Shown: piece by piece, positions 1,778 to 47,573 of the stretch
How the letters are laid out: every line of letters starts with the position of its first letter
How positions within the stretch are numbered: the stretch's first letter is position 1
Source: Candidatus Hydrogenedentales bacterium
GTDB lineage: Bacteria; Hydrogenedentota; Hydrogenedentia; Hydrogenedentales; CAITNO01
Assembly (NCBI GenBank): GCA_041859375.1
Contig: JBHEKP010000150.1
Span: forward strand, 1-50,673
Reading direction: 5' to 3'
DNA length: 50,673 nucleotides
Translations under genes and position numbers: made by a program
Notes under the pieces: generated by a model
Told to the model about the DNA's origin: nothing
What the model saw: the letters and a program-made list of their open reading frames with translations, nothing else
Databases searched by the model: none

Positions 1778-1785
1778 TTAATCAC

Positions 1786-1929
1786 GACGCACGGGTGGCC
1801 TTGTTCTGCTCCTTCGAAAACCATTTCAAAGCCAATGTCTCCTTCCCGGAAAGCATCCTCGAAGTCATGACTAATGATCAGTATGTGCGTGGCGTGTTGG
1901 ACTCCCTGCACCGGTTAACGAACCCCGCC
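1786..1929 (+). pseudogene. Fragment homologous to the 3' end of an RDD-family gene (second, diverged copy)
   Basis: The translation DARVALFCSFENHFKANVSFPESILEVMTNDQYVRGVLDSLHRLTNPA matches DARVAVFAAFAAHFKAKAAFPEGVLAGITDEQYVRNVVDSLHRFRSPA (encoded at 1324..1467) at about 28/48 residues. It has no start codon or N-terminal domain and uses AT-richer codons. Confidence 0.8.
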
Positions 1930-1949
1930 GCCACTAGCATAGCGAGCTC

Positions 1950-3083
1950 TTACCGCTCAATACGTTTCCAGTTGTTTTTGTCTGTAGCGTAGGAGAGACT
2001 TATCGTCACCGCCGCCTCATACGAAAGCGCCATTACCCCCTCGGCCGCAGCCCTTCGTTCCTGCTCGGCAAGTGCTTCCGCCCGCACATCAGGCATCATA
2101 CTGAGCAATAACGCCACGGCATGATCCGCGCGGGTGGGGTATGGAACCAACACGTCGCCTTTGGTTTCCTGATAAGGCGTGATGTCTTGGGTGAAGGGCA
2201 ACAAAAATTCTGCAATTTCCGGACGTCTAATGTAAACGAGTTCCCCGGCGTTGTCCAGTAGTTGCTCCGGTGTCGAACTATTCCGCATGACCGTGGCAAT
2301 ACAGGCATGGATGTCTGGAGACTCATAAATGCGCGCGCTGGCACGCATCGCCGCCCAAGTCAACGAACCTTTCCACGTCTCACATGACAGCAGCCTGGCG
2401 GGTTCTGTTTCGCCGCGTATTTGCTTGTCAAGCTCAATGGCCTGAGCAAGATGGGGTTTGACCGATTCCATGCCCGCCACGCCGCAGGCGCCAATCAAAA
2501 AATTAAGCGTTCCGGTACTGTCCCTTTCCTGAAGAAGTAATGCCAAGGCCTGTTCCATGGAATTCCTCGCCGAGCCTGAAAAATCACGGCTTAGCGTGAA
2601 CAAGCGCATGCCATCCCGGATAACAGCCAATGCCTCGCGCCGTCGCCCCGCATCCTCCTTGTTTCCCAGCCAGTCCAGCATGGATGCGGCCAGTGTTTCC
2701 ACAGCGGAAACACGGATTTCCAGATTAGATGAATTCGCTGAAAAGGCCGCGTAATTGCCGTAGGCTTCCCGCATGACCCAGATTGAAGGGTCATGGAAAA
2801 GCGGGGGAAACATTGGGAGAAATATTTCGGCACCCCGCTCACAAAGATCCCTCACATTAACCAACGAGGGGTCTATACTGTTTGCATGTTGCCTGACTCC
2901 CGCCACATAACGTGCGAAGAGTTCCTCATTTGAAAATTCTTCGAGCTGTTTTCTTCTCGCTTCGTCAGTATTTATGGTAGCGTTATTGTCTGATTGGCCT
3001 TGAGCAAGTCCAGTAATTATAAAAAAGGCCATAATTGAAAAAGCGACTACTCTGTATCGATAAATAACTAACACAAATTCCAT
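1950..3083 (-). CDS. Hypothetical secreted protein (alpha-helical, function unknown)
   Basis: The start was moved to ATG 3083 (MEFVLVIYRYRVVAFSIMAFFIITGLAQG signal peptide), preceded by GGAG (complement of 3091..3100). It begins 19 nt downstream of the 3103 stop of the upstream gene. GC is intermediate. Confidence 0.65.
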   Translation of the reverse strand: MEFVLVIYRYRVVAFSIMAFFIITGLAQGQSDNNATINTDEARRKQLEEFSNEELFARYVAGVRQHANSIDPSLVNVRDLCERGAEIFLPMFPPLFHDPSIWVMREAYGNYAAFSANSSNLEIRVSAVETLAASMLDWLGNKEDAGRRREALAVIRDGMRLFTLSRDFSGSARNSMEQALALLLQERDSTGTLNFLIGACGVAGMESVKPHLAQAIELDKQIRGETEPARLLSCETWKGSLTWAAMRASARIYESPDIHACIATVMRNSSTPEQLLDNAGELVYIRRPEIAEFLLPFTQDITPYQETKGDVLVPYPTRADHAVALLLSMMPDVRAEALAEQERRAAAEGVMALSYEAAVTISLSYATDKNNWKRIER

Positions 3084-3102
3084 AATAAACTCCTTTCCTC
3101 TA

Positions 3103-4311
3103 TCAATATTGCCATTTTCCAGCAACTTCCTTATGAATCTGATCCCATTGATCTTTTCTAAGAACAGTATTCGTGCCAATTGGAACTGAATAACCCATAA
3201 GATTTGATGTGTCATAATGTAACACTGCGTTTGGATTCTCAGACTGGTAAAAATCAGGTAGCTTCCCTATCATATGTCCAACTTCATGAGCAATTGTTTG
3301 AAAAAAAACAGGTTGATTAGATGAGCATGCCACAAACCCAAAGCGTCCTCCAAGGTATGCATAACCTCCTGCATTTTGTATATATGGAGGAACTATAAAA
3401 ATTACATAATTATTATTTCCGAATATTTGGCCACATGAATCGATTATTGCTTGGGGTTCTGTGGTGGTTTTTTGTATATTTGGATTTACATAAGGATCTT
3501 GATATTGTTCAAAATTCAAATATTCATTATTATCTAAATCATATACAGATTGCACTAAATTTGGATACAAGATTACATTAAATTTCACTACACATTGATT
3601 ATAGACAATATTATTAAGAAAGTTTTCAAGCATTGTAGAATTTAATAGGGTGCATTGTTGATTAATGACAACAACTTGAAACAATAATGTCTTTGGCTCC
3701 TGATATGCCACTACATTCAAACCACCTAAAATTTCCCCTGTAGCTGTGCTAAATGCATGAAACCCTGTCTCTGCTTTATCCATTATAGAAGCGGCATTAA
3801 GGCGAGTCCCATTAACATTATTACAAATATTTGCGTCACGAACTGTAAATATCTCCTGACTATTGCTAACAGAAAATTCGGTATATTCTCCCCCTTTTAT
3901 TGATAACCAAGAAAATACTGTATCAGCCATATATAATCGTTGATCAAAACCATATTTCGTATTAACATTTTTTGTAAATGATATTGGCCACGGGAAAGAA
4001 TTATTTAATGCACGTTCAATTAGATAAAGCGCCGATATGTTTCCATAATCGTCAATAATAAATTTCGGGGATGTATCAACTGGGCTATTTGATTTTATAA
4101 TAAGCTCCTTGTAATTTGAATTTTGAATTAGGGGCGGAACTTCCGTTTGGTTTGTCACAAGGGTAAAGTTATCTTTGTAAGATCTATTTATTTTTCCATT
4201 TATATAAAGCATATCGCTATTTCTACTAGATCGGACAAAATTACGACCCAATTTACCCAAAAAAATTTTTTTTCTTTGTATAACTATATCGTATTTTTCT
4301 GTGCTTGTCAA
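3103..4311 (-). CDS. Zincin metallopeptidase (HExxH; M64/reprolysin-like arrangement)
   Basis: C-terminal ...GGYAYLGGRFGFVACSSNQPVFFQTIAHEVGHMIGKLPDFYQ...SNLMGYS contains an HEVGH zinc site followed by a possible Met-turn. GC is ~32%. No signal peptide is seen at the listed start. Confidence 0.7.
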   Translation of the reverse strand: MTSTEKYDIVIQRKKIFLGKLGRNFVRSSRNSDMLYINGKINRSYKDNFTLVTNQTEVPPLIQNSNYKELIIKSNSPVDTSPKFIIDDYGNISALYLIERALNNSFPWPISFTKNVNTKYGFDQRLYMADTVFSWLSIKGGEYTEFSVSNSQEIFTVRDANICNNVNGTRLNAASIMDKAETGFHAFSTATGEILGGLNVVAYQEPKTLLFQVVVINQQCTLLNSTMLENFLNNIVYNQCVVKFNVILYPNLVQSVYDLDNNEYLNFEQYQDPYVNPNIQKTTTEPQAIIDSCGQIFGNNNYVIFIVPPYIQNAGGYAYLGGRFGFVACSSNQPVFFQTIAHEVGHMIGKLPDFYQSENPNAVLHYDTSNLMGYSVPIGTNTVLRKDQWDQIHKEVAGKWQY

Positions 4312-4689
4312 GTGCTGTTTTATACAAAACTAGTAGAAAGGCCTTTTCAGGAGAAGCGCTCTCCGTTTAAATTATTAACTACCTGCAGAACCTGTGGTAT
4401 GAGGAAGGACCCTAAAAGCGACAAAATAGTGATGCCTTGTATGCATGTCGTGCAGGCCGTATGTGATTGTGTTCAAGAGTATCCGCTGAACTTTAGCCCA
4501 TTCTTTTTTGTCTCAAATTTTAATCGGGGCTCAAAGAGAGGCCTGACATAGTTTGTATCTTAGCATGGTTTTTCGAATAGGCTTTAGCCATGTGACTTCG
4601 CTGGAGATAACGTGGTATTCCTTTGATTGCCCACGCTGGAACAAGGGAGCCGGTAGGTTAACTTTAATTTGGGGACTGTACACCGTCCC

Positions 4690-4866
4690 GGCATGGCGGG
4701 ACGCGCCGGACGCGGGTATAATGCCCCCCAACCCGGCAAGGAGGCGGACGCCATGGGCGAACTGATTTACACCTTTGCGAGCATCGCCTCGCGCTTCAAA
4801 AACGGAACCACGGCGCTGACGGGCATGCGCCGGCTGGCGGACACGCTGCACCCGCTCGGGGTGCCC
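4690..4866. repeat. Direct repeat copy B (intact promoter and 5' end of gene 4753)
   Basis: Partner of 1610..1777; the near-identical core is 4717..4866. Confidence 0.9.
4717..4744 (+). promoter_or_regulatory. TATAAT -10 box (4717..4722) and AAGGAGG RBS (4738..4744) for gene 4753
   Basis: Perfect TATAAT hexamer and a perfect Shine-Dalgarno 8 nt before the ATG at 4753. The same elements are duplicated at 1626..1653. No convincing -35 was seen. Confidence 0.5.
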
Positions 4867-6078
4867 GTGACCTGGCTGGTGAGCCCGGACTCGGCACGCG
4901 CCGCGGCGGCGCAAATCACGGAATGGCACGACGCCTTCGGCGACGAGGTGGCGGTGGCCCCGCCGGAGCTGTCCATCTCCCACCTGGTGGCCGACGCGCC
5001 CTACGGGGCGAGGCGCGACCGCTATGCCGCCGCCCGCGACGCCATACAGAAGGTGATGCCCTGGGCGGAGTGCGCCGTGGCGGCGGGCCACACGGACCCG
5101 GACATTGTCCGCATCTGCGCGGAGCTGGGCTTTGAGGGGCTCTGGGGCTTCTGCTGGGAGCAGATTGAGGTGGACGACATCACCGACCGGGGCTGCCCCT
5201 GGGGCTTTTATTACATGGACCGGGACGACCGGCTCCGTCCCGCGCGGGGGCGCGGCCCCGTGGCCATGGAGTGGACCGCCCACGACCTGCTCAAGACCTT
5301 CCACAGCGGCAGCCCCTGGCTCTACTCGACGGATCCCAACGATGTGGGGCGGGGCGGCCTCTGCGCCTGGGAGGACACGGACTACTGGAAGGCGGTGGCG
5401 GACCAGTACCTGCGGAACACGCGGCACAACGGCCAGGTGATCCTGCTCCAGCACCAGGAGTCGCACGAGATGGAAATCGCCGACGGCTGGCGCTGCTACA
5501 CGGAGGAGGACATCCGCGAGGCGCTCGTGTTTCTCGACGCTTTTGTGCGCCACCTGAAACCGAAGGCGCGCATCATGACCCTGGCGCAGGCGGCCCGCGC
5601 CTACCGGGAGCGGAACGAACACACGGCGTCCTCGTACATGCTGTGGGACGACGTCCCCGCGCCGCGCCACAACCCCGACTACGCCTGGAACAACTGCCCC
5701 GGCCCGTGGCCGAGGACCTTCCTGTTTTACGACCGGGACGCGCAGATGGTGTTTGTGGACGGCCAGGTCCATCCCGTGTGCCTGCGCAACTATGGCAAGG
5801 CCTGGGACCGGCTGGATTACTACGCGGAACACCGCATCCCCCGCCCGAAACTCATCCGCAACACCCAGTTCACCTGGAGCCGCGAGATTGAAATTGTGGT
5901 GGAAAGCGACCGGGCGCTGCCCTACGGGCTCACCCTCTGGGGCGATTACAGCCTCTACCAGTTGGGCGACTGCCCGGGGCTGATAGAGGGAAAAATCCTG
6001 CCCCATGAACTGCTTTTCCTGAGGTACGACCTGCAACCGGGCGAAAACCGCCTCCTCATCCGGCTCCAGGGGAAATAG
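4753..6078 (+). CDS. Conserved hypothetical protein (family not recognised)
   Basis: Host-like GC and codon usage, with a strong RBS. The start is taken at MGELIYTF rather than at the upstream ATG 4669. Length is 441 aa. Confidence 0.7.
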   Translation: MGELIYTFASIASRFKNGTTALTGMRRLADTLHPLGVPVTWLVSPDSARAAAAQITEWHDAFGDEVAVAPPELSISHLVADAPYGARRDRYAAARDAIQKVMPWAECAVAAGHTDPDIVRICAELGFEGLWGFCWEQIEVDDITDRGCPWGFYYMDRDDRLRPARGRGPVAMEWTAHDLLKTFHSGSPWLYSTDPNDVGRGGLCAWEDTDYWKAVADQYLRNTRHNGQVILLQHQESHEMEIADGWRCYTEEDIREALVFLDAFVRHLKPKARIMTLAQAARAYRERNEHTASSYMLWDDVPAPRHNPDYAWNNCPGPWPRTFLFYDRDAQMVFVDGQVHPVCLRNYGKAWDRLDYYAEHRIPRPKLIRNTQFTWSREIEIVVESDRALPYGLTLWGDYSLYQLGDCPGLIEGKILPHELLFLRYDLQPGENRLLIRLQGK

Positions 6079-7075: not shown

Positions 7076-7225
7076 GCGCCGCTCCTTCTCCCCGGCCCGT
7101 CTCCGCCCACTATAATCCATCCCGCCCCGCGCCCCAAAACACTGAACCGTGGGGGATGGGAAAAAGGGTGGCCGAACCCCCTCGTTCATCTTTATAATTG
7201 TCGAGGTGTTAACCGCCCCAGCGGG

Positions 7226-8401
7226 ATGGAATGGAGGAATCGGAACGTGTCTACTGCGTCAAAATGGTTCTATTGGTTCAGTTCCCTCGCCATGCTGGGC
7301 GGATTTCTCCTCTTTTCACCCAATGCCGCCGCCGACACATTCAAACGGACACCCGCCAACGGCGAGGATGCCGTGTGTTATGACATTAGCGCCGACGGGA
7401 ATATACTTCGCCTAGACTATGCACAGCAGAAGATGACGGTTCTCGGCACTGTGCCATTGAAAGGGAGTTCGCCGGACATATGCGTGTATGGGGCGATAGC
7501 CCCTGATGGTCGCGCGGCGTGGCTGCTCTTTCAAACATTAAAGGCCAACTGGACGCACAGTGCGCTGCACCATTTCGACATGGCGGAACAAAACCTGCGG
7601 GCGGCGGGCCATACGATCGAGACCGCCGGGGACTTCGCCATGGTCGCGGCAAGTTCCATGGCGTTCTATTGCGCGGAAACACCTTCAGAACCGGCGCTGC
7701 TGGTGAGGAAAACAGCCGATGGTTTTGAGAAACTCACCGCGAAATTCACCTTTGGCGGATGGCGCATTTTTTCCACCGCACCGGGTGGTGCTCTATTCTT
7801 GAGGCCCAATGCATACGGACCCGGTTATCTTTGTATTCAAACGGGCAGCGGCAGCGTTGTCCGGCACGGCACGGCGGAGGTTTTATGGGGCAGACAGGAT
7901 GTCTCGCGTGTGGGAATCAGCAATATTTGTGGTAACTACGGTCTGGTTGGTTGTGGGGCATCCGACGGCACACGTCTTTGCGCCATTCAAAACCTTGAGA
8001 CAAACGAGACCATTGCGGTTATTCCAAATGTTCCCGAAGGGGAGGCCGAGGCATGTCTGCACCGAATTGGCAGGGAGACACTGGCCATTGATGTTTTTTG
8101 CGGCGCCCATAACATCACCACAAAGGAGTTCCAATATTCAGGGCTTGTGAGGCGGTATGTTGTTGATCTCAAAAAGAAGTCCTTCTCAGGCCCCGAGGAA
8201 TTCAACTTTGAGCCCGCCACACAATTGATGCTCCGTGTGGGGACGGAACTCAGATCATGCCCCAGGCACCACTTCGGCTATGTGGGCATGCGTGACTTCG
8301 CGCATGGCGTTCAGATGGACACGCCTCTGGAAACATGGGATGACCGGACGCGACGAATTGACTTGTTGCGGTCCCGGCTGGCTGAAAAGCAGAATGAATG
8401 A
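7226..8401 (+). CDS. Hypothetical secreted or membrane-anchored protein
   Basis: Only the 3' part of listed ORF 6092..8401 is plausible. The start is ATG 7226 (MEWRNRNVSTASKWFYWFSSLAMLGGFLLFSPNAAA). GC is ~52%, intermediate between backbone and island. Confidence 0.6.
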   Translation: MEWRNRNVSTASKWFYWFSSLAMLGGFLLFSPNAAADTFKRTPANGEDAVCYDISADGNILRLDYAQQKMTVLGTVPLKGSSPDICVYGAIAPDGRAAWLLFQTLKANWTHSALHHFDMAEQNLRAAGHTIETAGDFAMVAASSMAFYCAETPSEPALLVRKTADGFEKLTAKFTFGGWRIFSTAPGGALFLRPNAYGPGYLCIQTGSGSVVRHGTAEVLWGRQDVSRVGISNICGNYGLVGCGASDGTRLCAIQNLETNETIAVIPNVPEGEAEACLHRIGRETLAIDVFCGAHNITTKEFQYSGLVRRYVVDLKKKSFSGPEEFNFEPATQLMLRVGTELRSCPRHHFGYVGMRDFAHGVQMDTPLETWDDRTRRIDLLRSRLAEKQNE

Positions 8402-8423
8402 TGCGCCGTGAAGAGACGGCAGG

Positions 8424-8447
8424 AAAGCGGAAACCCGCCGCTTTTTT
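8424..8447 (+). terminator. Possible intrinsic terminator after 7226..8401
   Basis: Short hairpin AGCGG-aaacccg-CCGCT followed by TTTTTT. Confidence 0.4.
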
Positions 8448-8674
8448 CGCGTGCCAATCATACCCCCAAAACGCCTTTCTCGTGGCCGCAAAGGACAATC
8501 TTCCCGACTCGGTCTGTTAAAATATACAGGCAGACATCAAAACATGTCCAAGACTCCCGCCCAAACAGCCTACTTCTGCCGTATATGGCGGTTAAAAAGG
8601 GTTGATTTTTTGAAAAAGACATGGTATCCTACAATCGGTTCAGTTAAGAAAATCAACTTAAAGGAGGAAGTTAC

Positions 8675-9340
8675 ATGAAAAAAGTAGCGATTTTTGTCTG
8701 TCTCATGTTGTGTTTTGGTGTTCAAGCGGGTGGACAGATTCCAGATCCGGTTACCTGTCTGTATTGCCCACTTTCTTCAATACCAGAGGGAACAACAGTG
8801 CTTTCATCATGGTGTAAGTCTCAAGTCAGTAAATTGGTACAGTATCAGAATCCCGTATTCACGAAACTGGCACCACAATATGTTTATGCAGGTGGCTGCA
8901 ATGATCCAGCACCGAAAACAGAGGTGTCTACGCTAACAATAGGTAAAAATCAGGAAACAAGTTGGACAATCTCTGGGGGAGTGGAGGGTGGATGGGCGCT
9001 TGGATGGACAGTAACGGGCCATTTTGAGGTAGGTTGGACTGGAACTTGGGGAGAGACAACAGAGGTTTCGGTTACGATGACCAGTGTTAGCAAAGGCAAT
9101 GAACGAATCAGAACAGAATTTGAAGTTACACGCACGGATTGGTCTAGTTATTTTGAAGAGACAAAAAGTGGCTTTATGGTATGTCATTATATTGGTGCAT
9201 CGCCAGACACAGGATTTTTAGTCCCTTGTCCAACAACAACCGAAAAAATAGATGGCAAGCCTGGAATAACACTCATGGCCAAAGAAAAAAGTGCTGTAAA
9301 CGATTGTCCTCCTCCGACAACTATTACATGTGATAAGTAA
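8675..9340 (+). CDS. Small secreted Cys-containing beta-rich protein (unknown function)
   Basis: AAGGAGG RBS and signal peptide MKKVAIFVCLMLCFGVQAGG. The central alternating Gly/Thr/Trp stretch is TLTIGKNQETSWTISGGVEGGWALGWTVTGHFEVGWTGTWGETTEVSVTMT. Confidence 0.7.
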   Translation: MKKVAIFVCLMLCFGVQAGGQIPDPVTCLYCPLSSIPEGTTVLSSWCKSQVSKLVQYQNPVFTKLAPQYVYAGGCNDPAPKTEVSTLTIGKNQETSWTISGGVEGGWALGWTVTGHFEVGWTGTWGETTEVSVTMTSVSKGNERIRTEFEVTRTDWSSYFEETKSGFMVCHYIGASPDTGFLVPCPTTTEKIDGKPGITLMAKEKSAVNDCPPPTTITCDK

Positions 9341-9450
9341 ACTATATCATACTTTGTTTTTTTGTATGGGATAAGTGTGTTCTTATTCAATCGTACAATT
9401 TGCTCGCAATAATTTATGTCAAGGTTGAGACAGAGTGGGAGGTGTTGAAA

Positions 9451-10839
9451 ATGAAATACTTTATTATATCATTTTTAATTCTAGCTACAAATATTAAATT
9501 AGCTAATGCAGAAAATAATAATAATGACGCATCAAATTCCTACGAATACTCTCAAACATCAATAAAAAACAAATTAGAAGCGCTTAAAACAAACAGTAAC
9601 ACGGATGATATTATTGAGATTATAAATATTGGAAAAAAACTTGAAATTATGGGGGATGATATATTAGCAACAGAATGTTTTGAGACCGTTGCAGTTTATG
9701 GTAAAAATCATATCGCTTATCGCTTTTTAGCTGCGGAAGCTGCAATAAATTTAGTGCTTTCTATGGGCTCAAATAGTTATTATCGCGCATCAAATTTACT
9801 TGAATTGGAAGTCTCATTAGCTCCTGAATTGCTAGCAAAGACACCAAAAAATATCAATAATGAAGGGTCAAAAATTAATATATTAGCCTGTTGTCCTGAT
9901 ATTCTTAGGGCAGAGATTATGGTGAAAACACAAAATTACTATTTGGCAATTCCCCTGCTTGAAAATATAATTTCAAATTATGATGACACACTAGGTAGAC
10001 TTGATAAAAAAACATTGCTTAATACAGGAATAGAGGAAAATGAGATATATGTTTGGCTTATTTTATGTTATGTAGATAATATTAAAAACAACAATTACGA
10101 TCGTAATAAAAACGAAAATAACTATGAAAATATATATAAAATTTTACTTAAATATATAGAAAATAGCAATAAGGACAACGGGCTTGATAGTCGCATTGTT
10201 GATAACATACCAGTGTTGTTAAATATATTTAAAGGGCCAGATGGGATTAAAAAAATTGAACAAATAATTCAAGTGGCTGGATTAAGTCGTGCGAAAATGT
10301 TGATGATTTTATTGGTATATCCAGATGAAGAGGCTCGCAAATTAAACACTACTGGTGAGGAAATGGATATTGCATACAAGCAATATTTATGTCTAGTAGA
10401 AAATTGTTTTGAAAACGAATCAAAAAAAGAATATTTAGTCGATTTTAATTTTTCTCGATTAAGAAATGCTATGCGAAAAGCAAAAAATCGTGAATTAGCA
10501 GATTTAATTATTAAGGACATTATTGAGATATTTCCCCTTTCGGAAGATCAAATGATAACTTTTTCTAGCCTCCAAATAGAATACGTTAATACGTTTTTAG
10601 ATGGTAAAATTAAAGATTTGCCTTTTGCGGAAATTGCAGTTGCAGCCAAAAAACTCCTTCCAAAACAAGAAAATGGGTTAAATGAGAATGGTACAATCAA
10701 GAACAATTTAAGCGGCAATAATGTGAATAATTACATCAATGATAGCAATTTTACTAAGCAGACATATATATGGGTAATTGTATTTTTTATTGGAATGCTT
10801 ATAGTTTTCATTGCATATATTATTCGAAAGCACAAGTGA
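9451..10839 (+). CDS. Hypothetical secreted helical-repeat protein with C-terminal membrane anchor
   Basis: Start at ATG 9451 after GGGAGG. Signal peptide [20 protein letters not shown] and C-terminal [22 protein letters not shown] followed by RKHK. Composition is Asn/Lys/Ile-rich. Confidence 0.7.
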
Positions 10840-12554
10840 TGCTTCCTTATCAAATAAACATAAATAATATTTTATTAACACCATATTTCTTTTCAATAAT
10901 ATTCGCTTTTGGTTTTGGTTATTTGTTGTTAATGGCGATTTCTAGAAAAATATACAATATTAAAAATATTGATGTATATTTTTTGTTTTTTGTATTTGTC
11001 GTCGCAATGGTGTTTTCGCATATTTATTGGTGTATTGAATATGGTGCTAATATTTTTTCATTAAATGTATTTAATTTATTTTCTCCTGGGCATGTATTTT
11101 ATGGTGGTCTATGTGGAGGGGTAGTTGCTTCTTATTTCTACGCCCGAATAAAAGGAATAAGATTTTTAACTTTATTAGATATGCTGGCTATCCCTACAGC
11201 TATTGGGTATGCAATCGTTCGCATTGGATGTTTTTTTACAGGGTGTTGTTATGGAAGAGAAACTGATTGTATATTTGGGGTTTCGTATCCTCCATTTGTA
11301 AAGGGTCCATATGCGCTGCAAGTGCATTATGGGAAGATTACGGTCCTATCTGACCATTCTATGCCTGTTCATCCATCACCCCTCTATTTATCGCTTGGAA
11401 GTATAATAATCGCTATTTATCTATCATATTGTACATTTAAAAAATGTTATCAAAGTGGTGAAATTGTAAAGAAATATATCATATTGTATGGCATCTTGCG
11501 CTTTTTTGTAGAATTTACTCGACAGAATGTCGGGAGTTTTTATATGTGGGGGATGTCCGGGGCTCAGTTCATATCACTCGGAATTATTTTTATTCCCATA
11601 TTTTTATCTTATATAGGCACCTGCCAATTTATATGGCAAAAGGGCATAAGAAAAAATAAAAATAATTCTAATGGTTTTTCTCTTGTTGAACTTCTTGTAG
11701 TAGTTGGCGTTTTGATCATGCTCGCCTCGTTGCTGTTACCGGCTCTTTCCAGCGCACAAGAGGCTTCAAGGCGATCTAGTTGTCAGAATAATTTGCGCCA
11801 ATGGGGAATGGCTTTTAAGATGTATAGTTCAGAGGCAAGAGGAGGATATTATCCTCCTATACAGTTAGAAATGACCGATCTTCGTAAAGGTGCTCTCGCA
11901 ATTGCTCCTAAACTAGATTCGATTTATCCAGAGTATGTCCCCAGCCTTGATATTTTAACTTGCCCAAGTGCAACGCATAGAATTAATAAAATTGACTTAT
12001 TTCGGGATAGAGGAAATATGGATCGATGTTATGCATATTTGGGATGGGTGTTAGACAAATGCGAAGAGAGTGGTCCGCGTATGACAGTACGTGAATTACT
12101 CGATTTAATTCCTTTTGTGGATTCAGATTTATATCAAGGCGAGCTAGAGGGACCTCGGCAATTCGTCCTACTTTGCGCTGCTATAGCTAGGAGGACTATA
12201 ATAGAATCTATATTTACATCACAGAATATTTTAGATATTAGTCGCAGGGTTGCTGCCACTGATGTAACTGTATGGGAATCTGACATTGGCAATGGAAATA
12301 CAAGCACCATTTTCCATATTAAGGAAGGAGTTGAACGATTCGCAGAGTTGGCCGAGAGCAACGTGTGGGTTATGTTTGACGCAATCTCTTCCGATGTGAA
12401 TCGTTTCAACCACGCTGTAGGTGGTGTGAATGTACTATATATGGACGGGCATGTTGAGTTATTACGATATCCAAGCAGGGCGCCTGTGAATAAAGGGATG
12501 GCATTATTTTTAGGAACTATTCTTGATAGACACTGGCTTCCGGAGTCTGAATAG
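10839..12554 (+). CDS. Fusion protein: Lgt-like (prolipoprotein diacylglyceryl transferase family) membrane domain + prepilin-type pseudopilin with H-X9-DG-like C-terminal motif
   Basis: The start overlaps the upstream stop (TGATG). The N-terminal half has Lgt-family motifs ([39 protein letters not shown]). At 11673/11676 there is a prepilin cleavage/methylation site [32 protein letters not shown], then [16 protein letters not shown] and [16 protein letters not shown]. Confidence 0.75.
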
Positions 12555-12829
12555 AGTGAATTGCTGAGCGGTATTTATCACTGTGAACCAAAGATCGTTG
12601 TGAGTGATATGAAATTAGATTTTAGGTCTTTTTCGTCGGTTCGTGTTGCAAAAGGCGGGATGCCTAATTAGGAGCATTTTTGCAATCAGCCGTGGGCCAC
12701 TAAGGGAACTCTAATAGATCTCCGGAAGCACCGGCAATTTAAGGAATGATTGCACGCACCATCGCCGTCGGCAAATGCAAGATTACGGCGTCTGGGATTG
12801 CCGGACAAGAGGACCGCCCCATTTTTGAT

Positions 12830-12951
12830 GCCCCAACGGGGCTGTGCAACAAAGCCTTGGGCTGTCCCGCCCCGAAGGGGCTGGACTACCTAGGGTAAGG
12901 CGGAACATATGGCCAACCTATCCTGTAGAGATTGCGCAGCCCCGTTAGGGC
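12830..12951. repeat. Imperfect inverted repeat / structured intergenic element
   Basis: Arm GCCCCAACGGGGCTGTGCAA (12830..12849) matches the reverse complement of TTGCGCAGCCCCGTTAGGGC (12932..12951) at 18/20. An inner hairpin GTCC-c-GCCCC-gaa-GGGGC-t-GGAC lies at 12864..12886. Confidence 0.5.
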
Positions 12952-13104
12952 AAAGAAGGACGGTATCATACGGTTCCTTGAATATGCCGACTATGAAGGC
13001 ACTATTGCGCCCGGCGATTAGGACCCCCAAAACGCCCCCCTTTACCCGCCCCGAGGCAATCGGCTAAAATCCATCCTCACCCGTGAAAACAAGGAACATC
13101 CACC

Positions 13105-19183: not shown

Positions 19184-19768
19184 GGCGCTCTTTCAAAAAA
19201 GGAAACCCGGGATGGGGCGCGTTAGGGAACAGCCCCTTCCGGCGGGGCTATTCCATGGCCTGTATTGTACACGCGCGCCGCCCCGCCGCTCCATCCTTCC
19301 CCACCGGGGCAGGCGCGCCGTTGTGGACAACAACGCACGCATATATGAAATAAACAAAAAATGCGAATATGGCGCGCAAAAAAAACGATGACCAGCCGTT
19401 TCCACTAATATTTTTGTTGAAAAAAAGTTGTTTACAACCTATGATTTGACTAGAGCACAGCACTTATTTTGAATGGGCCGTGTTTCCACACAACCCATAT
19501 TCAATTTTTTTTGTCCTTATGTTTTTTGAGGCGCACATCAGTCGGCCTTGCAACGCACAAGGAAAACCGTGGTGAAAAAATGGATGGCGTGCACCGGGGG
19601 GGAAGCGGCGCTTTTTCCCAACCGCCACGCATCCACCCCCTCCACCCCCGTCCTTTCCCGCCATCGAATCCCCTCCCTTGGTTTCCAACAACGAACGGGC
19701 CGCACACTGGCCCGGAGTTGCGCGGTATTTTCCCGCACCCGTTCCGATCAAAAGGAGAATGCGAACTA

Positions 19769-27171: not shown

Positions 27172-27221
27172 TTGTCCGGTTGATGTGCGGCAGACGCCGC
27201 GGTCCGGCCACTTTAAGGGTC

Positions 27222-27251: not shown

Positions 27252-27335
27252 GAACACAGAGTTGAAAAAGGTCCGTTTCCAAACTGAGGGGCGTCCTCGT
27301 CGCGGCGCCCCCGGCATGATAATTAAATGGAAGAC

Positions 27336-28487: not shown

Positions 28488-28534
28488 CCATGGGCGCCCT
28501 CATCCAGGATTCAACCCCGTCAGGGAGCATGATT

Positions 28535-33691: not shown

Positions 33692-33731
33692 GGCCGGGCC
33701 GCGGCAGACGCCGCGGTCCGGCCTCTTTTTT
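33692..33731 (+). terminator. Strong rho-independent terminator
   Basis: A 14-bp stem GGCCGGGCCGCGGC / GCCGCGGTCCGGCC (one G-U pair) with loop AGAC, followed by TCTTTTTT. Confidence 0.85.
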
Positions 33732-33829
33732 GGGATTGCCGGAAAGGGCAAGCCTCGGGTATCATCAGCGAACGGCTGATATGGGTTGATTTCCGCACCA
33801 CGGCAACGCAGGGAGTACCGGTCACGCCG

Positions 33830-41152: not shown

Positions 41153-41163
41153 GGCAAACACGC

Positions 41164-41202: not shown

Positions 41203-41217
41203 CGCGGGGGGACGGGC

Positions 41218-42006: not shown

Positions 42007-44334
42007 ATGGTGCCGATGCTTTGCCTTGGAGTGCTGCTTTCCGCGGGCGCCGCCGCGCCGGTCGTGGCCGGTCCGTCCGCCATCCTTTACGCGCGCGAGC
42101 TCGCGGACGGCGGCATCGCCGCCGCCACACCGGGGGAATACCATTTCTGGGTGTGGGCCGCGCCGGGGGGCACGGCGACCCTGACGGTGGGCGGCCGCGC
42201 CCTGGAGGCGGCCGTGCCCAGGCAGGAAAAGCAGGAGCGGGGGCAGGAGGCAATGTGGGCCTATGCGGGCGCGCTGAAGCTGGACAGGGAGGCCGCCGCG
42301 GTGAAACTGGACGGCGCCTGGGCGGTGGCGCTAAGCGCCCGCAGGGACTATGATCCCGCGCTGGTGATGGCGGACATGCGCGCCGTGGAGGGGCCCCGCG
42401 CGGTGGACGACCGGCGCGTGCGCCAGCTTCGGCACACGGACACGGTGTTCATGATGCCCCAATACCGGAGCCTGGAGGAATGGACGGCAAAGGCCGACGG
42501 CATCCGGCGGCGCATGCTGCTGAGTTCCGGCCTGGTGCCGGAGCCGGAAAAGACGCCGCTCAACCCGCAACTCTCCGGTCTGATTGATCACGGCGACTAC
42601 ACGGTGGAGAAGGCGGCCTTTGAGGTTGTGCCGGGCTTTTTCTGCACGGGCAACCTTTACCGGCCCAAGGGCGACGGGCCCTTCCCGGCGATTGTGAACC
42701 CCCACGGCCACTGGCAGAGCGGACGCCTTGAGGACTCGGAGATGTGCTCCGTGCCCGCACGCTGCATCACCTTCGCAAAAATGGGCGCGGTGGCCTTCAC
42801 CTACGACATGGTGGGCTACAACGACAGCCGCCAGTTTGTCCACCGCTGGGGCGGGGAGCGGGAGAAGCTCTGGGGCGTGCACCCCTTCGCTCTCCAGCTG
42901 CTCACCAGCATCCGCGCCGTGGATTTTGTCAGCGGCCTGCCGGGGGTTGACCCCGCGCGCATCGGCTGCACGGGCGCGTCGGGCGGCGGCACCCAGACCT
43001 TCGCCCTTTACACCGCCGATCCGCGCATCGCCGCGGCCGCGCCGGTGAACATGATCTCCTCCACGATGCAGGGCGGCTGCGTGTGCGAGAACGCGCCGCT
43101 CATCCGCTATTCCAACTCGAACATGGAAATCGGCGCGATGATGGCGCCGAAGCCGCTGCTCATGGTGGCGGCCACGGGCGACTGGACCCGCGAGACGCCC
43201 CGTGTCGAATACCCCGCCATCCGGAGCGTCTACGCCCTTTACGGCGCGGAGGCGAAGGTGGAAAGCGCCCAGTTCGACTACGGCCACAACTACAACAAGG
43301 ACAGCCGCGAGGCGGTGTACCGCTTCTTCGGAAGGCACCTGATCGACCCCAATCGCGACTGGACCGGCTTCACCGAGCCCGAACACAGGAAGGACCCGGA
43401 TGAGGCGCTGCGCGTGTTCCCCGGCGAGGGCCCGATGGAGGGCTACAAGAGCATGGGCCAGCAGGAGGTCATTGACGGATTCATCGCCCGCAACAAGGCC
43501 AAGTGGGACGCGGTGCTCCCCGCCGACGCCGGCGGGGTGAAGGCCTTCCAGGAACAGTACGGCACGGTCCTCGCCGACGTGCTGGGCGTGGCCCCGCCCG
43601 ATCCGAACGGGTTGCGCTGCGAGCGCGCGGGCCGCGCCGCGGAACGGGAGGGCTGCATGGCCGAGCGCTGGGTCATCAGCCGCGCGGCGCAGGGCGACGC
43701 GGTGCCCGCGGTGCTTTTCCGCGGAAGGGACAACACACCGCAGGACGCGGTGATCCTCGTTCACGGCGCGGGCAAGGCCGCCCTGATCGACCCGGAAAAG
43801 GGCGGCCCCGGCCCCCTGGCCGCCGCGCTTGCGGCGAAGGGGAAGGCCGTGCTGGTCATCGACCCCTTCCTGGCGGGGGACCACCAGCCCCCGGCGGAAA
43901 GCCGCTCCCGCGACGCCATGAAGGTCGGCGTGTTCCCCTTCCTCGACACCTTCGAGCCCACGGACGCCGCCTGCCGCGTGCAGGACGTGCTCACCGCCGC
44001 CGCGTTCCTCCGGGCGCGCCGCGACATGACGGGCCGCATTGAGCTGGCCGGGCTGGGCGGCGCGGGGGTCGCCTGCCTCCTCGCCGCGGCGGTGGATCCG
44101 GGCATCGCCGCCGTGGCGGCGGACCTGGAAAATTTCCCCCTGGACGACGACGACGCCTGGGTGCGGGACAACTACATCCCCTGCATCCGCAGCGTGGGCG
44201 ACGCGCGCACCGCCGCCGCCATGATTGCCCCCCGGCCGCTGACGCTTTGGAACGTGAACGGCGCGGAGGGCATCGGCCGCTACGGGGCGAAACTCCTTTC
44301 CGGCGCGCCCGCGCCGGGGGATATGCTGCCGTGA
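42007..44334 (+). CDS. Secreted alpha/beta hydrolase (acetyl-xylan-esterase / dienelactone-hydrolase-like)
   Basis: Start at MVPMLCLGVLLSAGAAAPVVAG. The nucleophile elbow is GCTGASGGGTQT, after FPAIVNPHGHW. A second hydrolase-like segment is VILVHGAGKAAL. Confidence 0.75.
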   Translation: MVPMLCLGVLLSAGAAAPVVAGPSAILYARELADGGIAAATPGEYHFWVWAAPGGTATLTVGGRALEAAVPRQEKQERGQEAMWAYAGALKLDREAAAVKLDGAWAVALSARRDYDPALVMADMRAVEGPRAVDDRRVRQLRHTDTVFMMPQYRSLEEWTAKADGIRRRMLLSSGLVPEPEKTPLNPQLSGLIDHGDYTVEKAAFEVVPGFFCTGNLYRPKGDGPFPAIVNPHGHWQSGRLEDSEMCSVPARCITFAKMGAVAFTYDMVGYNDSRQFVHRWGGEREKLWGVHPFALQLLTSIRAVDFVSGLPGVDPARIGCTGASGGGTQTFALYTADPRIAAAAPVNMISSTMQGGCVCENAPLIRYSNSNMEIGAMMAPKPLLMVAATGDWTRETPRVEYPAIRSVYALYGAEAKVESAQFDYGHNYNKDSREAVYRFFGRHLIDPNRDWTGFTEPEHRKDPDEALRVFPGEGPMEGYKSMGQQEVIDGFIARNKAKWDAVLPADAGGVKAFQEQYGTVLADVLGVAPPDPNGLRCERAGRAAEREGCMAERWVISRAAQGDAVPAVLFRGRDNTPQDAVILVHGAGKAALIDPEKGGPGPLAAALAAKGKAVLVIDPFLAGDHQPPAESRSRDAMKVGVFPFLDTFEPTDAACRVQDVLTAAAFLRARRDMTGRIELAGLGGAGVACLLAAAVDPGIAAVAADLENFPLDDDDAWVRDNYIPCIRSVGDARTAAAMIAPRPLTLWNVNGAEGIGRYGAKLLSGAPAPGDMLP

Positions 44335-45173
44335 GCGCAGCCGGTGAAGGATTGGCGCGCGACGCCCTGCTCCACATCACCGACCTGCATTTTTGGAAGG
44401 TGACCTGGAACCCGCTGCGCCTGATGGGCAAGCGCTTTCTGGGCAACGCCAACCTGTGGCTGCGCCGCCGCCGCCAGGTGAACATTGACCTTGCCGAAAC
44501 CACGGCGGACCTGCTGTGCGCCTCGGGCGTGCGGTGCGTGGTTGCGGGCGGCGACCTCACCACCACCTCGCTGGCGGAGGAGTACGCCCGCGCGGCGGAA
44601 TTCCTTGACCTGCTGGCGGCGCGCGGGCTCCGGGTGTGGGCCATTCCCGGCAACCACGATGTGTACACCTTCGGTTCGGCCCGGAGGGACCTGTTCCGCC
44701 GCTTCCTGGGGCGCTTCATGCCCGGCGACGCCCTGCCCGTCCGCGTGGCGCTGCCCGGCGGCACGCCCCTGATTTTCGCCCCCACCACCTGCCCCAACCT
44801 GATCACCTCGCGGGGGCGCGTCACCCGCGCGGAAATCGCCGAAACGGCCCGGCTCGCGGCGGACAGCCCGCCGGGGCCGGTGATCGTCGCGGGCCACTAC
44901 CCGCTCCTGTTCAAAACGGACGCCTACCACGAGCAGCCCACCCACCGCCTGCGCAACGCCGCCGCGCTGCGCGACGCCCTCGGCGAAACGGGGCGCACCC
45001 TCCTTTACCTTGCCGGGCATGTGCACCGGTTCAGCGAAACCACCGACGCCCGCCACCCCGCCATGACCCACGTCACCAGCCCCGCGCTCTTTTACAGCCG
45101 GGGTGGCGGCTACTCCGAAATCACCGTGCGCGACGGCGGTTTCCAGGTCCGGCTCCGGCGCACGGGCCCCTGA
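44331..45173 (+). CDS. Metallophosphoesterase (calcineurin-like)
   Basis: The GTG start overlaps the upstream stop (GTGA). Motifs are HITDLHF, GGDLTT, IPGNHD, GHYPL and AGHVHRF. Confidence 0.85.
   Translation: MSAAGEGLARDALLHITDLHFWKVTWNPLRLMGKRFLGNANLWLRRRRQVNIDLAETTADLLCASGVRCVVAGGDLTTTSLAEEYARAAEFLDLLAARGLRVWAIPGNHDVYTFGSARRDLFRRFLGRFMPGDALPVRVALPGGTPLIFAPTTCPNLITSRGRVTRAEIAETARLAADSPPGPVIVAGHYPLLFKTDAYHEQPTHRLRNAAALRDALGETGRTLLYLAGHVHRFSETTDARHPAMTHVTSPALFYSRGGGYSEITVRDGGFQVRLRRTGP
45155..45173. repeat. Direct repeat (left, att-like): last codons plus stop of the metallophosphoesterase gene
   Basis: CCGGCGCACGGGCCCCTGA matches CCAGCGCACGGGTCCCTGA at 47555..47573 at 17/19. Both sit exactly at the GC-content breakpoints of island 3. 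Confidence 0.6.
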
Positions 45174-45411
45174 ACGGGAAGAACCAAAGACATTGACAAA
45201 TCACAACAACCCTGATAGTTTACTGGCAAGTCGTGACAAGAGGGGGAGGTTGGCATGGCGTTGGGCCGCAAAAAAGGGAACCAGATGGTGAGAGAGGATA
45301 TTTTTACGGATGTTCGGGTTGTCAAAAGTGCATCGTATACCAACTCTGGAAGGCATTAAAACGATTTTTAGAAAACTAAATATATGCACAACGAGCAAGA
45401 AGGAAAGTTCC

Positions 45412-46311
45412 GTGAAAAATAATTTTGGCAAGTCAACAAATGTCTGCAACATATTTATAACATCAGTTGTGCTGCAAATTATCATCCATATAAATACGTT
45501 ATCGATTGCCAACGCAGATCAATTATATATAGAAAATCAAAAAGAATTAGACGAATATTATAATAATGCAATAGAGCGATTTTGTTTGGGAAAACACGGT
45601 GAACTAATATGTCCAGAAAGAAATCAACAAAAGCATTCTAATGTTTTTGCAATAAAATCAAGTGACAATTCGATAATTCTATATCTAAAGCATAATAATA
45701 AAATATTCATATTCGGAAGAGTAGATAACTCAAACAACATAACATACTCAAATATAGAACACTTTTCCAATTTACTTAAAAAGCCGTTTTGCGGTATAAA
45801 AAAATGGCCCAGCTCCAATAATTTTGAAGACGCGCACAATGGGGGTAAAAACATATTTTCAGATTTGTCGTCGTGTAAAATACCAAACAAACCAGACAAT
45901 TGCATAATGATTGCTTACGCGACTTGGAGCAATAGTATATACTTTAGCCGGAATGAAAATATTATGTCACCATTTCCAATCTGGCTAATAAAAAACAATA
46001 TTAATGACATATCGATAATATCGTCAGAAAATCCAAATATTACTATAGGAGAGATCAAAAAGACAGAACACAGAAATAGAATATACGCAACAATAAAATT
46101 TTATCATACAATAGATTTTTCCGCAATCAACAGCAATAAATACAAGAAATATACTCAAGAAGTATATCCATACTTTGACTTCAACGAAGGTCTGAAATTG
46201 CCCCCAAGTGGATTAATTTTGAACCCTATGTGTCCGTTAGTTGATACATACAAAGTATTTTACAATAAACATGGAGCGGTGGAATATGTTATGGAACCGC
46301 TTCGCGACTAA
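45412..46311 (+). CDS. Hypothetical secreted protein (island 3, paralog 1)
   Basis: The preferred start is GTG 45412 after AAGAAGGAAAG, giving signal peptide (M)KNNFGKSTNVCNIFITSVVLQIIIHINTLSIANA. An alternative ATG lies at 45310. Confidence 0.6.
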   Translation: MKNNFGKSTNVCNIFITSVVLQIIIHINTLSIANADQLYIENQKELDEYYNNAIERFCLGKHGELICPERNQQKHSNVFAIKSSDNSIILYLKHNNKIFIFGRVDNSNNITYSNIEHFSNLLKKPFCGIKKWPSSNNFEDAHNGGKNIFSDLSSCKIPNKPDNCIMIAYATWSNSIYFSRNENIMSPFPIWLIKNNINDISIISSENPNITIGEIKKTEHRNRIYATIKFYHTIDFSAINSNKYKKYTQEVYPYFDFNEGLKLPPSGLILNPMCPLVDTYKVFYNKHGAVEYVMEPLRD

Positions 46312-46501
46312 ATTTTCCCTGTATATGGATGTCCGGAACATGGAGGTTTACAGTGCTAAAGACATCGCCAAATTGGTGCTGCGTGCCAACGACTACCAAC
46401 TCTCGGCGCTCCTGCTGGTTCTGGAGCATGGACACCGACAGACAAGGAGAGTGTGCGGAGGAATATTGCGCAGATGAAATGCCAACACCGAGAGACATAA
46501 T

Positions 46502-47344
46502 GTGAAATCAATTGCACTGTGTTTAAATAAATTTTTCGGATTATATTGCTTAACTATTGTATTGATTATGTCCTCCGAATTGGCATATGCCACAAATAAA
46601 ATAATAGATGATAATGATAAATTCTCCATGGCCAAATCAATTGGGTTCTTCTATGTTGGAAAATATGGAGAATTGATAATGCCAGACAGTGAAGTTGTGC
46701 ACAGTAATTCTATAGTTCGCGTAACACGGAACAAACAGGGTGGATTAAATTTATATTATTCAGTGCTTGCCTTTGAATATAAACTTTGCGCCAAAGTTTC
46801 AAAAAATGGAGAATTCGTGCCTTTGAAATATACTGTGCATTGTAAGTCGGAGAAAGATTATTGTGGACCAACAAAATGGTTGCACTATGACAAAGACGGA
46901 CTTCCGGCATTTCCCCGGGCAAAGTGTATGCTTGCAGATTATTCTAAATTACAGAAAATAGGTGACATGCCAAATGATACGATAGGTGTTGTCTACATAT
47001 TGGAAAGAGGTGATTATTATTTTGGCAATCTTTCTTCTCCGCGTCATCCTAAAGCGATATGCTGGGTGGTAAAAAATAATGATAATGGATTTGTATTTAT
47101 TGACAACGAGGACAAAGATAACAATATTGTGTTGCGAGTCGATGGAAATAGAAAAGCTCACTGGATGGGTAATGCTTCGATCGAAGCAAGAGATTATTGC
47201 TATTGGATATATACAGACATGACAACAAAGCAACCATGTCTTCCTAAATATGGTACAATAATTAGTAATTATGAATGCTATCCAGAATCCCAAATTATAT
47301 GGAAAACCGCAGAAGGTCATTTTTTTGCTGAAGAAATTCAATAG
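46502..47344 (+). CDS. Hypothetical secreted protein (island 3, paralog 2)
   Basis: GTG start with signal peptide KSIALCLNKFFGLYCLTIVLIMSSELAYA. It shares GK(H/Y)GELI(C/M)P, C-G-x-x-K-W and W-(L/V)-(I/V)-K-N-N segments with 45412..46311. Confidence 0.6.
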   Translation: MKSIALCLNKFFGLYCLTIVLIMSSELAYATNKIIDDNDKFSMAKSIGFFYVGKYGELIMPDSEVVHSNSIVRVTRNKQGGLNLYYSVLAFEYKLCAKVSKNGEFVPLKYTVHCKSEKDYCGPTKWLHYDKDGLPAFPRAKCMLADYSKLQKIGDMPNDTIGVVYILERGDYYFGNLSSPRHPKAICWVVKNNDNGFVFIDNEDKDNNIVLRVDGNRKAHWMGNASIEARDYCYWIYTDMTTKQPCLPKYGTIISNYECYPESQIIWKTAEGHFFAEEIQ

Positions 47345-47554
47345 CATAAAAGGAACCTAATATGAATATTTTCAACTCTCGTCATCCAGTTGTACTGGGA
47401 GACACTTATTATTTTTGAATTTTTTTACCACATTCCATTCCCCTTAACGGCATACAAGTCATAATAATACAAAAAAACACCATTTTGAGGGTAGACGCGT
47501 CCGGAAGCGCAAGAAGCCGCCTCGATGCTTTGCAGGAACCGTAGTATTTCCCTT

Positions 47555-47573
47555 CCAGCGCACGGGTCCCTGA
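47555..47573. repeat. Direct repeat (right, att-like): remnant copy of the gene 3' end
   Basis: Partner of 45155..45173. It reads ...QRTGP* in frame, mirroring ...RRTGP* of the intact gene. Confidence 0.6.

Follow-up and report, generated by a model that had tools for sequence, protein, structure and literature searches.

Strain-variable islets of two foreign base compositions in a GC-rich Candidatus Hydrogenedentota chromosome and their probable integration by housekeeping recombination

How do short segments some 40 GC points below the rest of a GC-rich chromosome come to lie between intact host genes, and where do they come from? The question is raised by a 50,673-nt stretch of DNA from a Candidatus Hydrogenedentales bacterium (assembly GCA_041859375.1, contig JBHEKP010000150.1, positions 1 to 50,673; hereafter the window). 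An earlier note on its sequence had pointed out three extreme AT-rich segments, most of them coding for exported proteins and none for mobility functions, and had proposed either a trans-mobilised cassette system or recombination-driven exchange between lineages of very different GC content. The analysis reported here favors the latter: the segments are strain-variable islets of two foreign compositions that were probably acquired recently from other lineages of the same phylum and integrated by housekeeping recombination.

GC content was determined in 500-nt windows, third-codon-position GC (GC3) was determined per gene, and the layout was drawn at 60-nt resolution. The backbone of the approximately 70% GC chromosome lies at 65-78% GC, and the island cores drop to 27-35% at positions ~3000-4500, ~9000-12500 and ~45250-47500, within low-GC segments termed island 1 (1778-4722), island 2 (7141-13024) and island 3 (45174-47553). 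Both the GC profile and GC3 bear out the three extreme segments of the earlier note. GC3 falls into three discrete classes, at about 0.90 (backbone), 0.55 (mid) and 0.27 (low). The backbone genes RDD, X, AP-endonuclease-like, HldE, metallophosphoesterase-like and MurB have values of 0.88-0.92, and the six genes I1_369, I2_221, I2_462, I2_LgtPil, I3a and I3b have values of 0.22-0.32. The middle class (0.48-0.61, ~50-55% GC) comprises RDD', I1_377, I2_384, a small open reading frame (ORF) of island 3 and the island edges; the genes of a further segment at the right end of the window, island 4, also fall into it.

The islands are therefore not uniform blocks but nested composites in which low-GC DNA lies within mid-GC DNA within backbone. 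Island 1 is mid-GC from 1778 to ~2950 and low-GC from ~2950 to ~4580, followed by a short mid-GC stretch to 4722. Island 2 is mid-GC from 7141 to ~8560, low-GC from ~8560 to ~12700 and mid-GC again to 13024. Island 3 alternates twice, with mid-GC DNA at 45174-45317, low-GC at 45318-46323, mid-GC at 46324-46477, low-GC to ~47480 and mid-GC to 47553. Because GC3 is flat along individual genes, the V-shaped GC profile of island 2 reflects window smoothing and amino-acid content.

The reality of the segments was assessed by strain comparison. Contigs of conspecific strains were retrieved via the exact HldE protein (ENA, NCBI and Logan assemblies) and then compared with the window by BLAST. L001 is an ENA scaffold, L002 is GCA_016278185.1, L003 is GCA_964634585.1, L009-L013 are Logan contigs, and L097 and L002 belong to one metagenome-assembled genome (MAG). 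Island 1 and both of its junctions are present in L001 and L002 at 99.2-99.6% identity, and in L003 the site is exactly empty, with the repeat standing there once. None of L001-L008 has island 2, whose genes and junctions are borne by L009-L013. L097 carries island 3 without positions 45318-46323 (the I3a cassette). The junctions of islands 1 and 2 thus recur in other assemblies and, for island 1, in other samples. Presence or absence between conserved flanks was found for island 1 (empty in L003), island 2 (L001-L008), I3a (L097) and island 4 (L104), among strains that are 98.6-99.7% identical, and in every case the insert leaves and re-enters host sequence at the identical nucleotide. The three segments are genuine and strain-variable and are not chimeras. 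Conservation at the same loci in distant relatives, which the earlier note had named as grounds against its reading, was not found: some strains of the same species are without the islands, and not even the closest relatives preserve the order of genes around HldE.

The same comparisons bear on age. Compared with other strains, the window has 0-1.7 differences per kb in island 1 and 5.7-18 in the flanks of that island. For island 2 and its flanks the figures are none in 5.7 kb and 4.4-4.8 per kb, and for island 4 they are 0.9 and 6.2 per kb. The window backbone is an outlier with respect to L001, L002 and L003, yet its island 1 is nearly identical to the copies in L001 and L002. That islands 1 and 2 are almost free of differences on flanks differing by 0.4-1.8% suggests recent spread, and, as judged from these sequences, islands 1, 2 and 4 appear to have spread after the strains diverged.

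The junctions record how the segments are joined to the host. Islands 1-3 are all intergenic with intact neighbor genes, and gene ends are duplicated at islands 1 and 3, in line with the two duplications reported in the earlier note. The empty island 1 site reads RDD stop, promoter, gene X; the occupied site reads promoter and X codons 1-37, RDD', two cargo genes, AT-rich DNA, P', 144-nt repeat and intact X. The left repeat copy (1608-1777, + strand) spans the native promoter between the two genes (-10 TATAAT) and codons 1-37 of X, and it equals the single copy in the empty-site strain L003. Positions 1634-1777 recur at 4723-4866 (+), with 143 of 144 nt identical in the window and 144 of 144 in L001. 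The duplication covers the promoter and the start of the downstream gene up to codon 37, and the right copy continues into intact gene X (4753-6078). The RDD' fragment (1778-1992, +, GC3 0.48) represents the 3' portion of a diverged member of the RDD family and confirms the RDD ortholog fragment noted earlier; positions 1774-1929 are 74% identical in nucleotides and ~64% in amino acids to 1312-1467 of host RDD. RDD' joins X codon 37 at an apparent GCCC microhomology of 4-5 nt, as judged by analogy with host RDD. At the other end, an AT-rich upstream region (4213-4664, 40% GC) is followed by P' (4665-4722), which copies the host sequence of the RDD end and promoter in diverged form, with indels. 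From the mid-GC composition of RDD' and P', island 1 seems to have come directly from a mid-GC relative in which RDD and X were likewise neighbors and the low-GC gene was already present. In host RDD, the C-terminal proline-rich tail (PPPP repeats, window 1486-1600) is especially rich in substitutions and indels when strains are compared, and the RDD' fragment is without this tail.

Island 2 is bounded by two copies of the 9-nt direct repeat CCCCAAAAC, at 7132-7140 and 13025-13033, which enclose 5,884 nt; the repeat occurs once at the empty site of L001-L008. No hidden diverged flank copies were found at its ends, where no alignment beat shuffled controls.

Island 3 lies between 20-nt repeats that are 18/20 identical (z = 6.2 against shuffles). 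The left one, TCCGGCGCACGGGCCCCTGA (45154-45173, +), is the last 20 nt of the metallophosphoesterase-like gene (~44331-45173), and the right one, TCCAGCGCACGGGTCCCTGA (47554-47573, +), is a copy of that gene's 3' end placed just before the murB promoter. Within the island, a mid-GC leader (45174-45317, +) contains the start (45255) of a small ORF of ~67 aa that is intact in L097. In the window this ORF is interrupted by the I3a cassette (45318-46323, +; 1006 nt, low-GC, one secreted-protein gene at 45412-46311) between 13-nt imperfect repeats, TA(C/T)GGATGT(T/C)CGG, at 45305-45317 and 46324-46336, and its displaced 3' part lies at 46324-46477 (+). The cassette, which is missing from L097, is present in L104, and it extends only ~25 nt past the stop codon of its gene.

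Two further islets were seen in this region. Island 4 (48526-50673, +, ~53% GC) runs off the window and continues to position ~15762 of L097. It encodes an RmrA-like HTH_3 and Peptidase_M78 regulator (48690-49895), a PIN/DUF3368-like protein (49861-50364) and a 71-aa ORF, is bounded by ~48-nt copies of the murB 3' end, and alters the MurB C-terminus from GGE* to GGEV*; its site is empty in L104. The ends of island 4 hold N- and C-terminal pieces of seemingly one broken regulator gene, which suggests that it is itself a nested insertion. Island 5 (L097 19420-20641; 1.2 kb, ~50% GC), seen only in L097 and missing from L104, has a single gene, for a 348-aa protein with a predicted signal peptide. 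On both sides lies a repeat of 20-30 nt, in which the -10 box of the downstream BNR-repeat gene is included, and the right-hand copy has a diverged upstream extension, like that of island 1.

The cargo of islands 1-3 comprises a metzincin-like protein with a secreted partner, a fusion of a prolipoprotein diacylglyceryl transferase (Lgt) domain with a pseudopilin beside a membrane-anchored partner, and two paralogous secreted proteins. Signal peptides were read by eye from the translations (charged n-region, hydrophobic core and AXA-like cleavage site) and are predicted for six island ORFs, starting at 3083 (-), 7247, 8675, 9451, 45412 and 46502, in agreement with the exported cargo proposed earlier.

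In island 1, I1_377 (1950-3083, -; 377 aa, GC3 0.54) has a predicted signal peptide and no known domain, and the sole homologue found, P0002, is 42% identical. Its composition is chimeric: the first ~45-60 codons, which cover the signal peptide region, have a GC3 of 0.30 and the remainder 0.52-0.65, a shift that points to an earlier recombination between homologous low- and mid-GC cassettes. I1_369 (3103-4212, -; 369 aa, GC3 0.22) belongs to the low-GC class, and no signal peptide was seen on reading its translation. A metzincin assignment was taken to call for the HExxHxxGxxH/D zinc-binding motif and a Met-turn plus a significant family-model match. The C-terminus of I1_369 bears HEVGHMIGKLPD and NLMGY, a metzincin-like zinc-protease motif; its Pfam and NCBIfam matches (M11, Reprolysin_3/4/5 and M6) were all sub-threshold (E = 0.004-0.05), and a PDB sequence search gave no match. 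One relative of the I1_377/I1_369 pair is known, on L014, where it has a uniform GC content of ~51%.

In island 2, I2_384 (7247-8401, +; 384 aa, GC3 0.61) has a predicted signal peptide and no known domain. I2_221 (8675-9340, +; 221 aa, GC3 0.32) is Cys-, Thr- and Gly-rich with a predicted signal peptide; homologue searches, including a PDB sequence search, were empty, and a single-sequence structure prediction was unusable (predicted local distance difference test score 32). I2_462 (9451-10839, +; 462 aa, GC3 0.23) is Asn-rich, with a predicted signal peptide and a C-terminal membrane anchor, and homologues ~33% identical lie directly upstream of a pilin gene on L095 and L096. The adjoining I2_LgtPil (10839-12554, +; 571 aa, GC3 0.30 and uniform along the gene) combines an Lgt domain (PF01790, 4.7e-40) with a prepilin-like part that scored 20.9 bits for the N-terminal methylation motif PF07963 (just under the cut-off of 21.2), 31.6 for DUF1559 (PF07596, cut-off 23.3) and 20 for the C-terminal H-X9-DG model TIGR04294 (cut-off 19). 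It fits the DUF1559/H-X9-DG prepilin-like proteins, as the earlier note had read it from the sequence, with a fused Lgt domain in addition. A 56% identical fusion occurs on L095 (49% GC) and a 38% identical one in L105, a Hydrogenedentes MAG, where it has native composition (62% GC, matching its flanks). L096 (67% GC) has a pilin without Lgt domain, 77% identical to the pilin half of the window protein, beside its I2_462 homologue. The fusion of Lgt to DUF1559/H-X9-DG is a recurring architecture in Hydrogenedentota (P0004 and P0006).

The right end of island 2 (12555-13024, +) is non-coding with 51% GC. A stretch of ~250 nt at 12780-13030 is strongly structured on the + strand (-114 against -86 kcal/mol for shuffles, z = -5.8; z = -3.4 on the - strand), and a 21-nt inverted repeat lies at 12829-12849 and 12932-12952. 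An Rfam search of 12500-13110 gave no match, and no second copy of 12780-13030 was found in 1.4 Mb of fetched loci; from its predicted folding, the stretch may be a new structured RNA or DNA element.

In island 3, I3b (46502-47344, +; GC3 0.30) is a secreted-protein gene and a distant paralogue of I3a (25% identity), with a common GK(H/Y)GELI motif. The family counts only 8 members among 1.84 billion representative proteins. Every member examined has a signal peptide as well as a G-x-HGELI motif, and the amino-acid composition varies among them from AT-type to GC-type.

Machinery that could move these segments was searched for with Pfam, NCBIfam, PHROGs and PADLOC. Islands 1-3 contain no integrase, transposase, conjugation or phage gene, which upholds the absence of such functions in the earlier note, and the sole PADLOC match was the island 4 regulator. 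No tyrosine or serine recombinase was found in the islands, among the backbone genes of the window (50 kb) or in a further ~40 kb of strain flanks. A phage origin was rejected, since I1_369, I2_462 and I3b had no relatives in scans of viral contigs and PHROGs was empty for islands 1-3. The flanking repeats (9, 13, 20, ~48 and 144 nt) are unrelated in sequence and have no conserved core. The islands share neither sequence nor end sequence with one another, no terminal inverted repeats were found at their ends, and no attC-like imperfect palindromes after ORFs or R'/R'' core sites at junctions were detected. The dedicated trans-mobilised cassette system suggested by the earlier note finds no support in these results, and its other suggestion, recombination-driven exchange between lineages of very different GC, is favored by the diverged flank copies and the variable length of the repeats.

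The host and the probable donors were approached through homologues. Among species-representative genomes, by far the most HldE relatives are labelled as Hydrogenedentota/Hydrogenedentes MAGs (best match 84% identical), and the remainder bear generic names or evident mislabels; this places the host in Candidatus Hydrogenedentota and not in the Planctomycetes-Verrucomicrobia-Chlamydiae (PVC) group. The host is found in wastewater-type metagenomes. The PVC-like attribution of the earlier note does not hold for the named homologues either: every Lgt-pseudopilin homologue with an organism name is from Hydrogenedentes. Across the Hydrogenedentota HldE relatives, locus GC ranges from 38% to 68%. GC3 of HldE is 0.30-0.33 in L037, L038, L040 and L049 and 0.54-0.55 in L044 and L046. 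Since these levels match both foreign classes, the donors are likely to be other Hydrogenedentota lineages. The gene pairs of islands 1 and 2 recur as pairs on L014, L095 and L096 (49-67% GC). Judged by the homologues compared, the cargo consists of phylum-typical accessory families that exist at many GC levels, and the window copies are of foreign composition. The donors thus appear to be related to the host, as the earlier note had proposed, on the strength of the named Lgt-pilin homologues, the recurring gene pairs and the matching GC3 levels.

Extreme islets as a general feature of Hydrogenedentota were considered and rejected. In 64 other loci of the phylum (L015-L094, 1.08 Mb, all around the one conserved gene HldE), no segment at least 15 GC points below the locus median over at least 900 nt was found, and the same loci contain only 15 mild dips of 10-13 GC points. 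This scarcity suggests that the density of extreme islets is particular to the species or the region.

Variable and unrelated repeats, diverged pieces of flank, an apparent microhomology join and the lack of a recombinase in the DNA searched fit housekeeping recombination. Donor-type anchors lie beside the cargo at island 1 (RDD', 74%, and P') and at island 5 (diverged promoter copy), and islands 2 and I3a show only 9-13-nt repeats. In the most likely course of events, DNA from relatives would be taken up, homology to a conserved neighbor gene or promoter would hold one end, and the other end would be joined at short microhomology. Such a route would correspond to homology-facilitated illegitimate recombination (HFIR). 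A donor fragment that had become circular and entered by a single crossover would have the same effect and would also account for the duplication of host sequence. The outcome would be direct repeats of arbitrary length with diverged copies of host flanks. The islets could then spread or be lost among conspecific strains via the same flanking homology, and later cassettes may insert into DNA that is already foreign. The nesting of compositions and the position of I3a inside existing island DNA suggest that foreign DNA serves as a tolerated landing pad.

Several observations weigh against this reading of acquisition by housekeeping recombination. No low-GC donor genome with near-identical copies was found; the best homologues are 42-77% identical and sit in mid- or high-GC contigs. 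Not all islets are recent, because I3b differs from L097 by 13.8 per kb against 6.2 in the backbone, which makes island 3b older than islands 1, 2 and 4. The island 2 contigs come from one run set with adjacent accession numbers and the window is possibly from the same samples, so that strain mixing in assembly could inflate the contrast between island 2 and its flanks. The host duplication at island 1 is impossible by simple replacement with one linear fragment and needs a circular intermediate or a two-chromatid event. Repeats over gene 3' ends, as at murB and the metallophosphoesterase-like gene, are also a classic integrase signature. For island 3 as a unit, exact-protein look-ups, which are sensitive to differences in start codon or allele, yielded no empty site, and natural competence of the host is putative, an assumption of the proposed course.

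The integrase signature belongs to a competing explanation, by which the islets are site-specific integrative elements or remnants, akin to cis-mobilizable elements (CIMEs) or integrative and mobilizable elements (IMEs), with attL and attR as flanking repeats and an integrase encoded elsewhere in the genome or on a helper element. The precise empty sites, the direct repeats exactly at compositional boundaries, the overlap of two repeats with 3' ends of housekeeping genes together with the replaced terminal codons of murB, the recent movement implied by near difference-free islands, and the ImmR/ImmA-like HTH-M78 regulator of island 4, a type common in integrative elements, would all suit it. 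It is nevertheless judged rather unlikely, though less so for the repeats at gene 3' ends: the searches of the islands, the window and the additional strain flanks revealed no integrase, five repeats of 9-144 nt without a common core would need several integrases, and the islands have no end sequence in common. The diverged flank copies with indels at islands 1 and 5 are expected from recombination between orthologous loci, not from attP, and the ~25 nt behind the I3a stop codon leave no space for a complex att site. Somewhat less probable still is a recombinase-free shuttle of secretome and envelope cassettes among Hydrogenedentota of ~38 to ~70% GC, in which the flanking repeats act as portable homology patches; an islet could excise between its repeats, and the circle with one repeat copy could transfer and re-integrate by a single crossover at the same site of another strain or species, and a preference of low-GC cassettes for landing in foreign DNA could give the nested layout. 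Integron-type cassettes, as in clusters of attC sites lacking integrases (CALIN), or non-autonomous transposons resembling miniature inverted-repeat transposable elements (MITEs) would account for small units of mostly one to four ORFs, for the nested I3a cassette and for 9- and 13-nt direct repeats that look like target-site duplications. Neither the palindromes and core sites of the former nor the terminal inverted repeats of the latter are present, shared island ends are lacking, and imperfect repeats of 9-144 nt are incompatible with the staggered cut of one transposase, which makes this origin very improbable.

Two explanations would deny that the segments are acquired DNA at all, and both are hardly credible. 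Reads of co-occurring low-GC organisms mis-joined into a high-GC contig would be conceivable given the metagenomic source and the extreme GC contrast. Several strain contigs are indeed interrupted at the repeat of island 1, to which the first 141 nt of L004 and the first 127 nt of L008 belong, and Logan contigs break at 12787-12811 within island 2. The same junctions, however, recur across samples and assemblers (the ENA scaffold, two NCBI MAGs, k141/k127 MEGAHIT-style contigs and Logan), and a mis-join would not return to the exact host nucleotide. At island 2 and I3a the repeats, of 9-13 nt, are not long enough to cause a false join in a de Bruijn graph, and the low-GC ORFs run to 221-571 codons against about a dozen expected by chance, as estimated from base composition. 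Alternatively, the AT-richness might have arisen in place, by AT-biased local mutation (decay of the deaminase or repeat-induced point mutation (RIP) type) or by partial amelioration of old inserts. This would suit the V-shaped 500-nt profile of island 2 and RDD' as a lower-GC copy of the adjacent gene end, in which 31 of 44 substitutions go from G/C to A/T. Yet 7 of ~45 A/T sites change to G/C, transitions and transversions are mixed, and the differences per codon position are 16/16/26, as in ordinary orthologous divergence; deaminase- or RIP-like decay of duplicated DNA was rejected on this ground. A smooth gradient produced by local mutation or amelioration was rejected as well, in view of flat GC3 within genes and three discrete classes. 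The low-GC ORFs are intact, and islands that are absent from ~99% identical strains and near difference-free where present leave no time for change in place.

Other features were seen in the window. Two giant ORFs, at 19469-27127 (~2,550 aa) and 28490-33658 (~1,720 aa), contain long Gly-rich tracts with 9-nt periodic GGC-type repeats, and the former differs in length among strains (2,430 aa in L001 and 2,418 aa in L004). A 94-nt direct repeat (72% identical) starting GCGGCAGACGCCGCGGTCCGGCC lies at 27187-27280 and 33701-33794, a short way upstream of genes 27327 and 33683, and possibly serves both as a leader or regulatory element. Searches of the window for tRNA genes and Rfam families were empty.

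Integration by housekeeping recombination can be set beside several known systems. CIMEs and IMEs, known from the Streptococcus CIME literature, are islands bounded by att repeats whose integrase is supplied in trans. The islets resemble them in boundary direct repeats, precise empty sites, the lack of an own recombinase and some insertions at gene 3' ends, but differ in having no shared att core, repeats of 9-144 nt, diverged copies of host flanks and no helper element in sight. Low-GC acquired islands in high-GC genomes are the usual targets of xenogeneic silencers such as Lsr2, MvaT and H-NS. Like such islands, the islets are AT-rich accessory genes, often surface or secreted, in a GC-rich chromosome; unlike them, they are far shorter, at 1-6 kb, and probably stem from donors of the phylum to which the host itself belongs.

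Hotspots without mobile-element genes, with turnover by recombination at flanking core genes, have been described (Oliveira et al. 2017, PMC5635113). Both there and here, strain-variable and nested accessory genes with fast turnover lie between core genes without integrase or transposase, and only housekeeping recombination and DNA with homologous flanks are needed. The islets differ in a far larger compositional contrast (GC3 0.27 against 0.90), in two discrete foreign classes, one nested in the other, in junctions that keep duplicated gene ends and diverged flanks, where a clean double crossover leaves none, and in a host from an uncultured phylum. Module displacement of the HFIR type is known from type VI secretion system (T6SS) effector-immunity modules of Vibrio cholerae and from Rhs C-terminal displacement (PMC5361080, which for HFIR cites, among its references, de Vries & Wackernagel 2002 and Prudhomme et al. 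2002). The likeness, seen here in the junction scars only, consists in one end anchored in a conserved neighbor and the other at an apparent microhomology, in incoming DNA that brings its own anchor copy, in displaced or duplicated gene ends left behind and in the lack of a dedicated recombinase. In contrast to the T6SS and Rhs arrays, the islets are not toxin arrays on a conserved secretion gene and lie at several unrelated loci, and island 1 duplicates rather than deletes host sequence, which calls for a Campbell-type or two-chromatid variant. The case is one of unusually extreme and well-documented recombination-acquired islets and does not reveal a new class of element.

The locus offers a natural example, in an uncultured phylum, of accessory genes that enter a chromosome without mobile-element machinery, and it combines exact empty sites, varied junction repeats, retained pieces of donor flank and nearly difference-free islands on diverged backgrounds. 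For genome recovery it means that 40-GC-point outliers in a MAG need not be contamination and that their automatic trimming is unwarranted. Within Hydrogenedentota, genes appear to move across very wide gaps in GC content. The cargo, with its Lgt-pseudopilin fusion, putative protease pair and very rare secreted families, points to strain-level variation of the cell surface, which may bear on interactions with phages, predators or competitors in wastewater communities.

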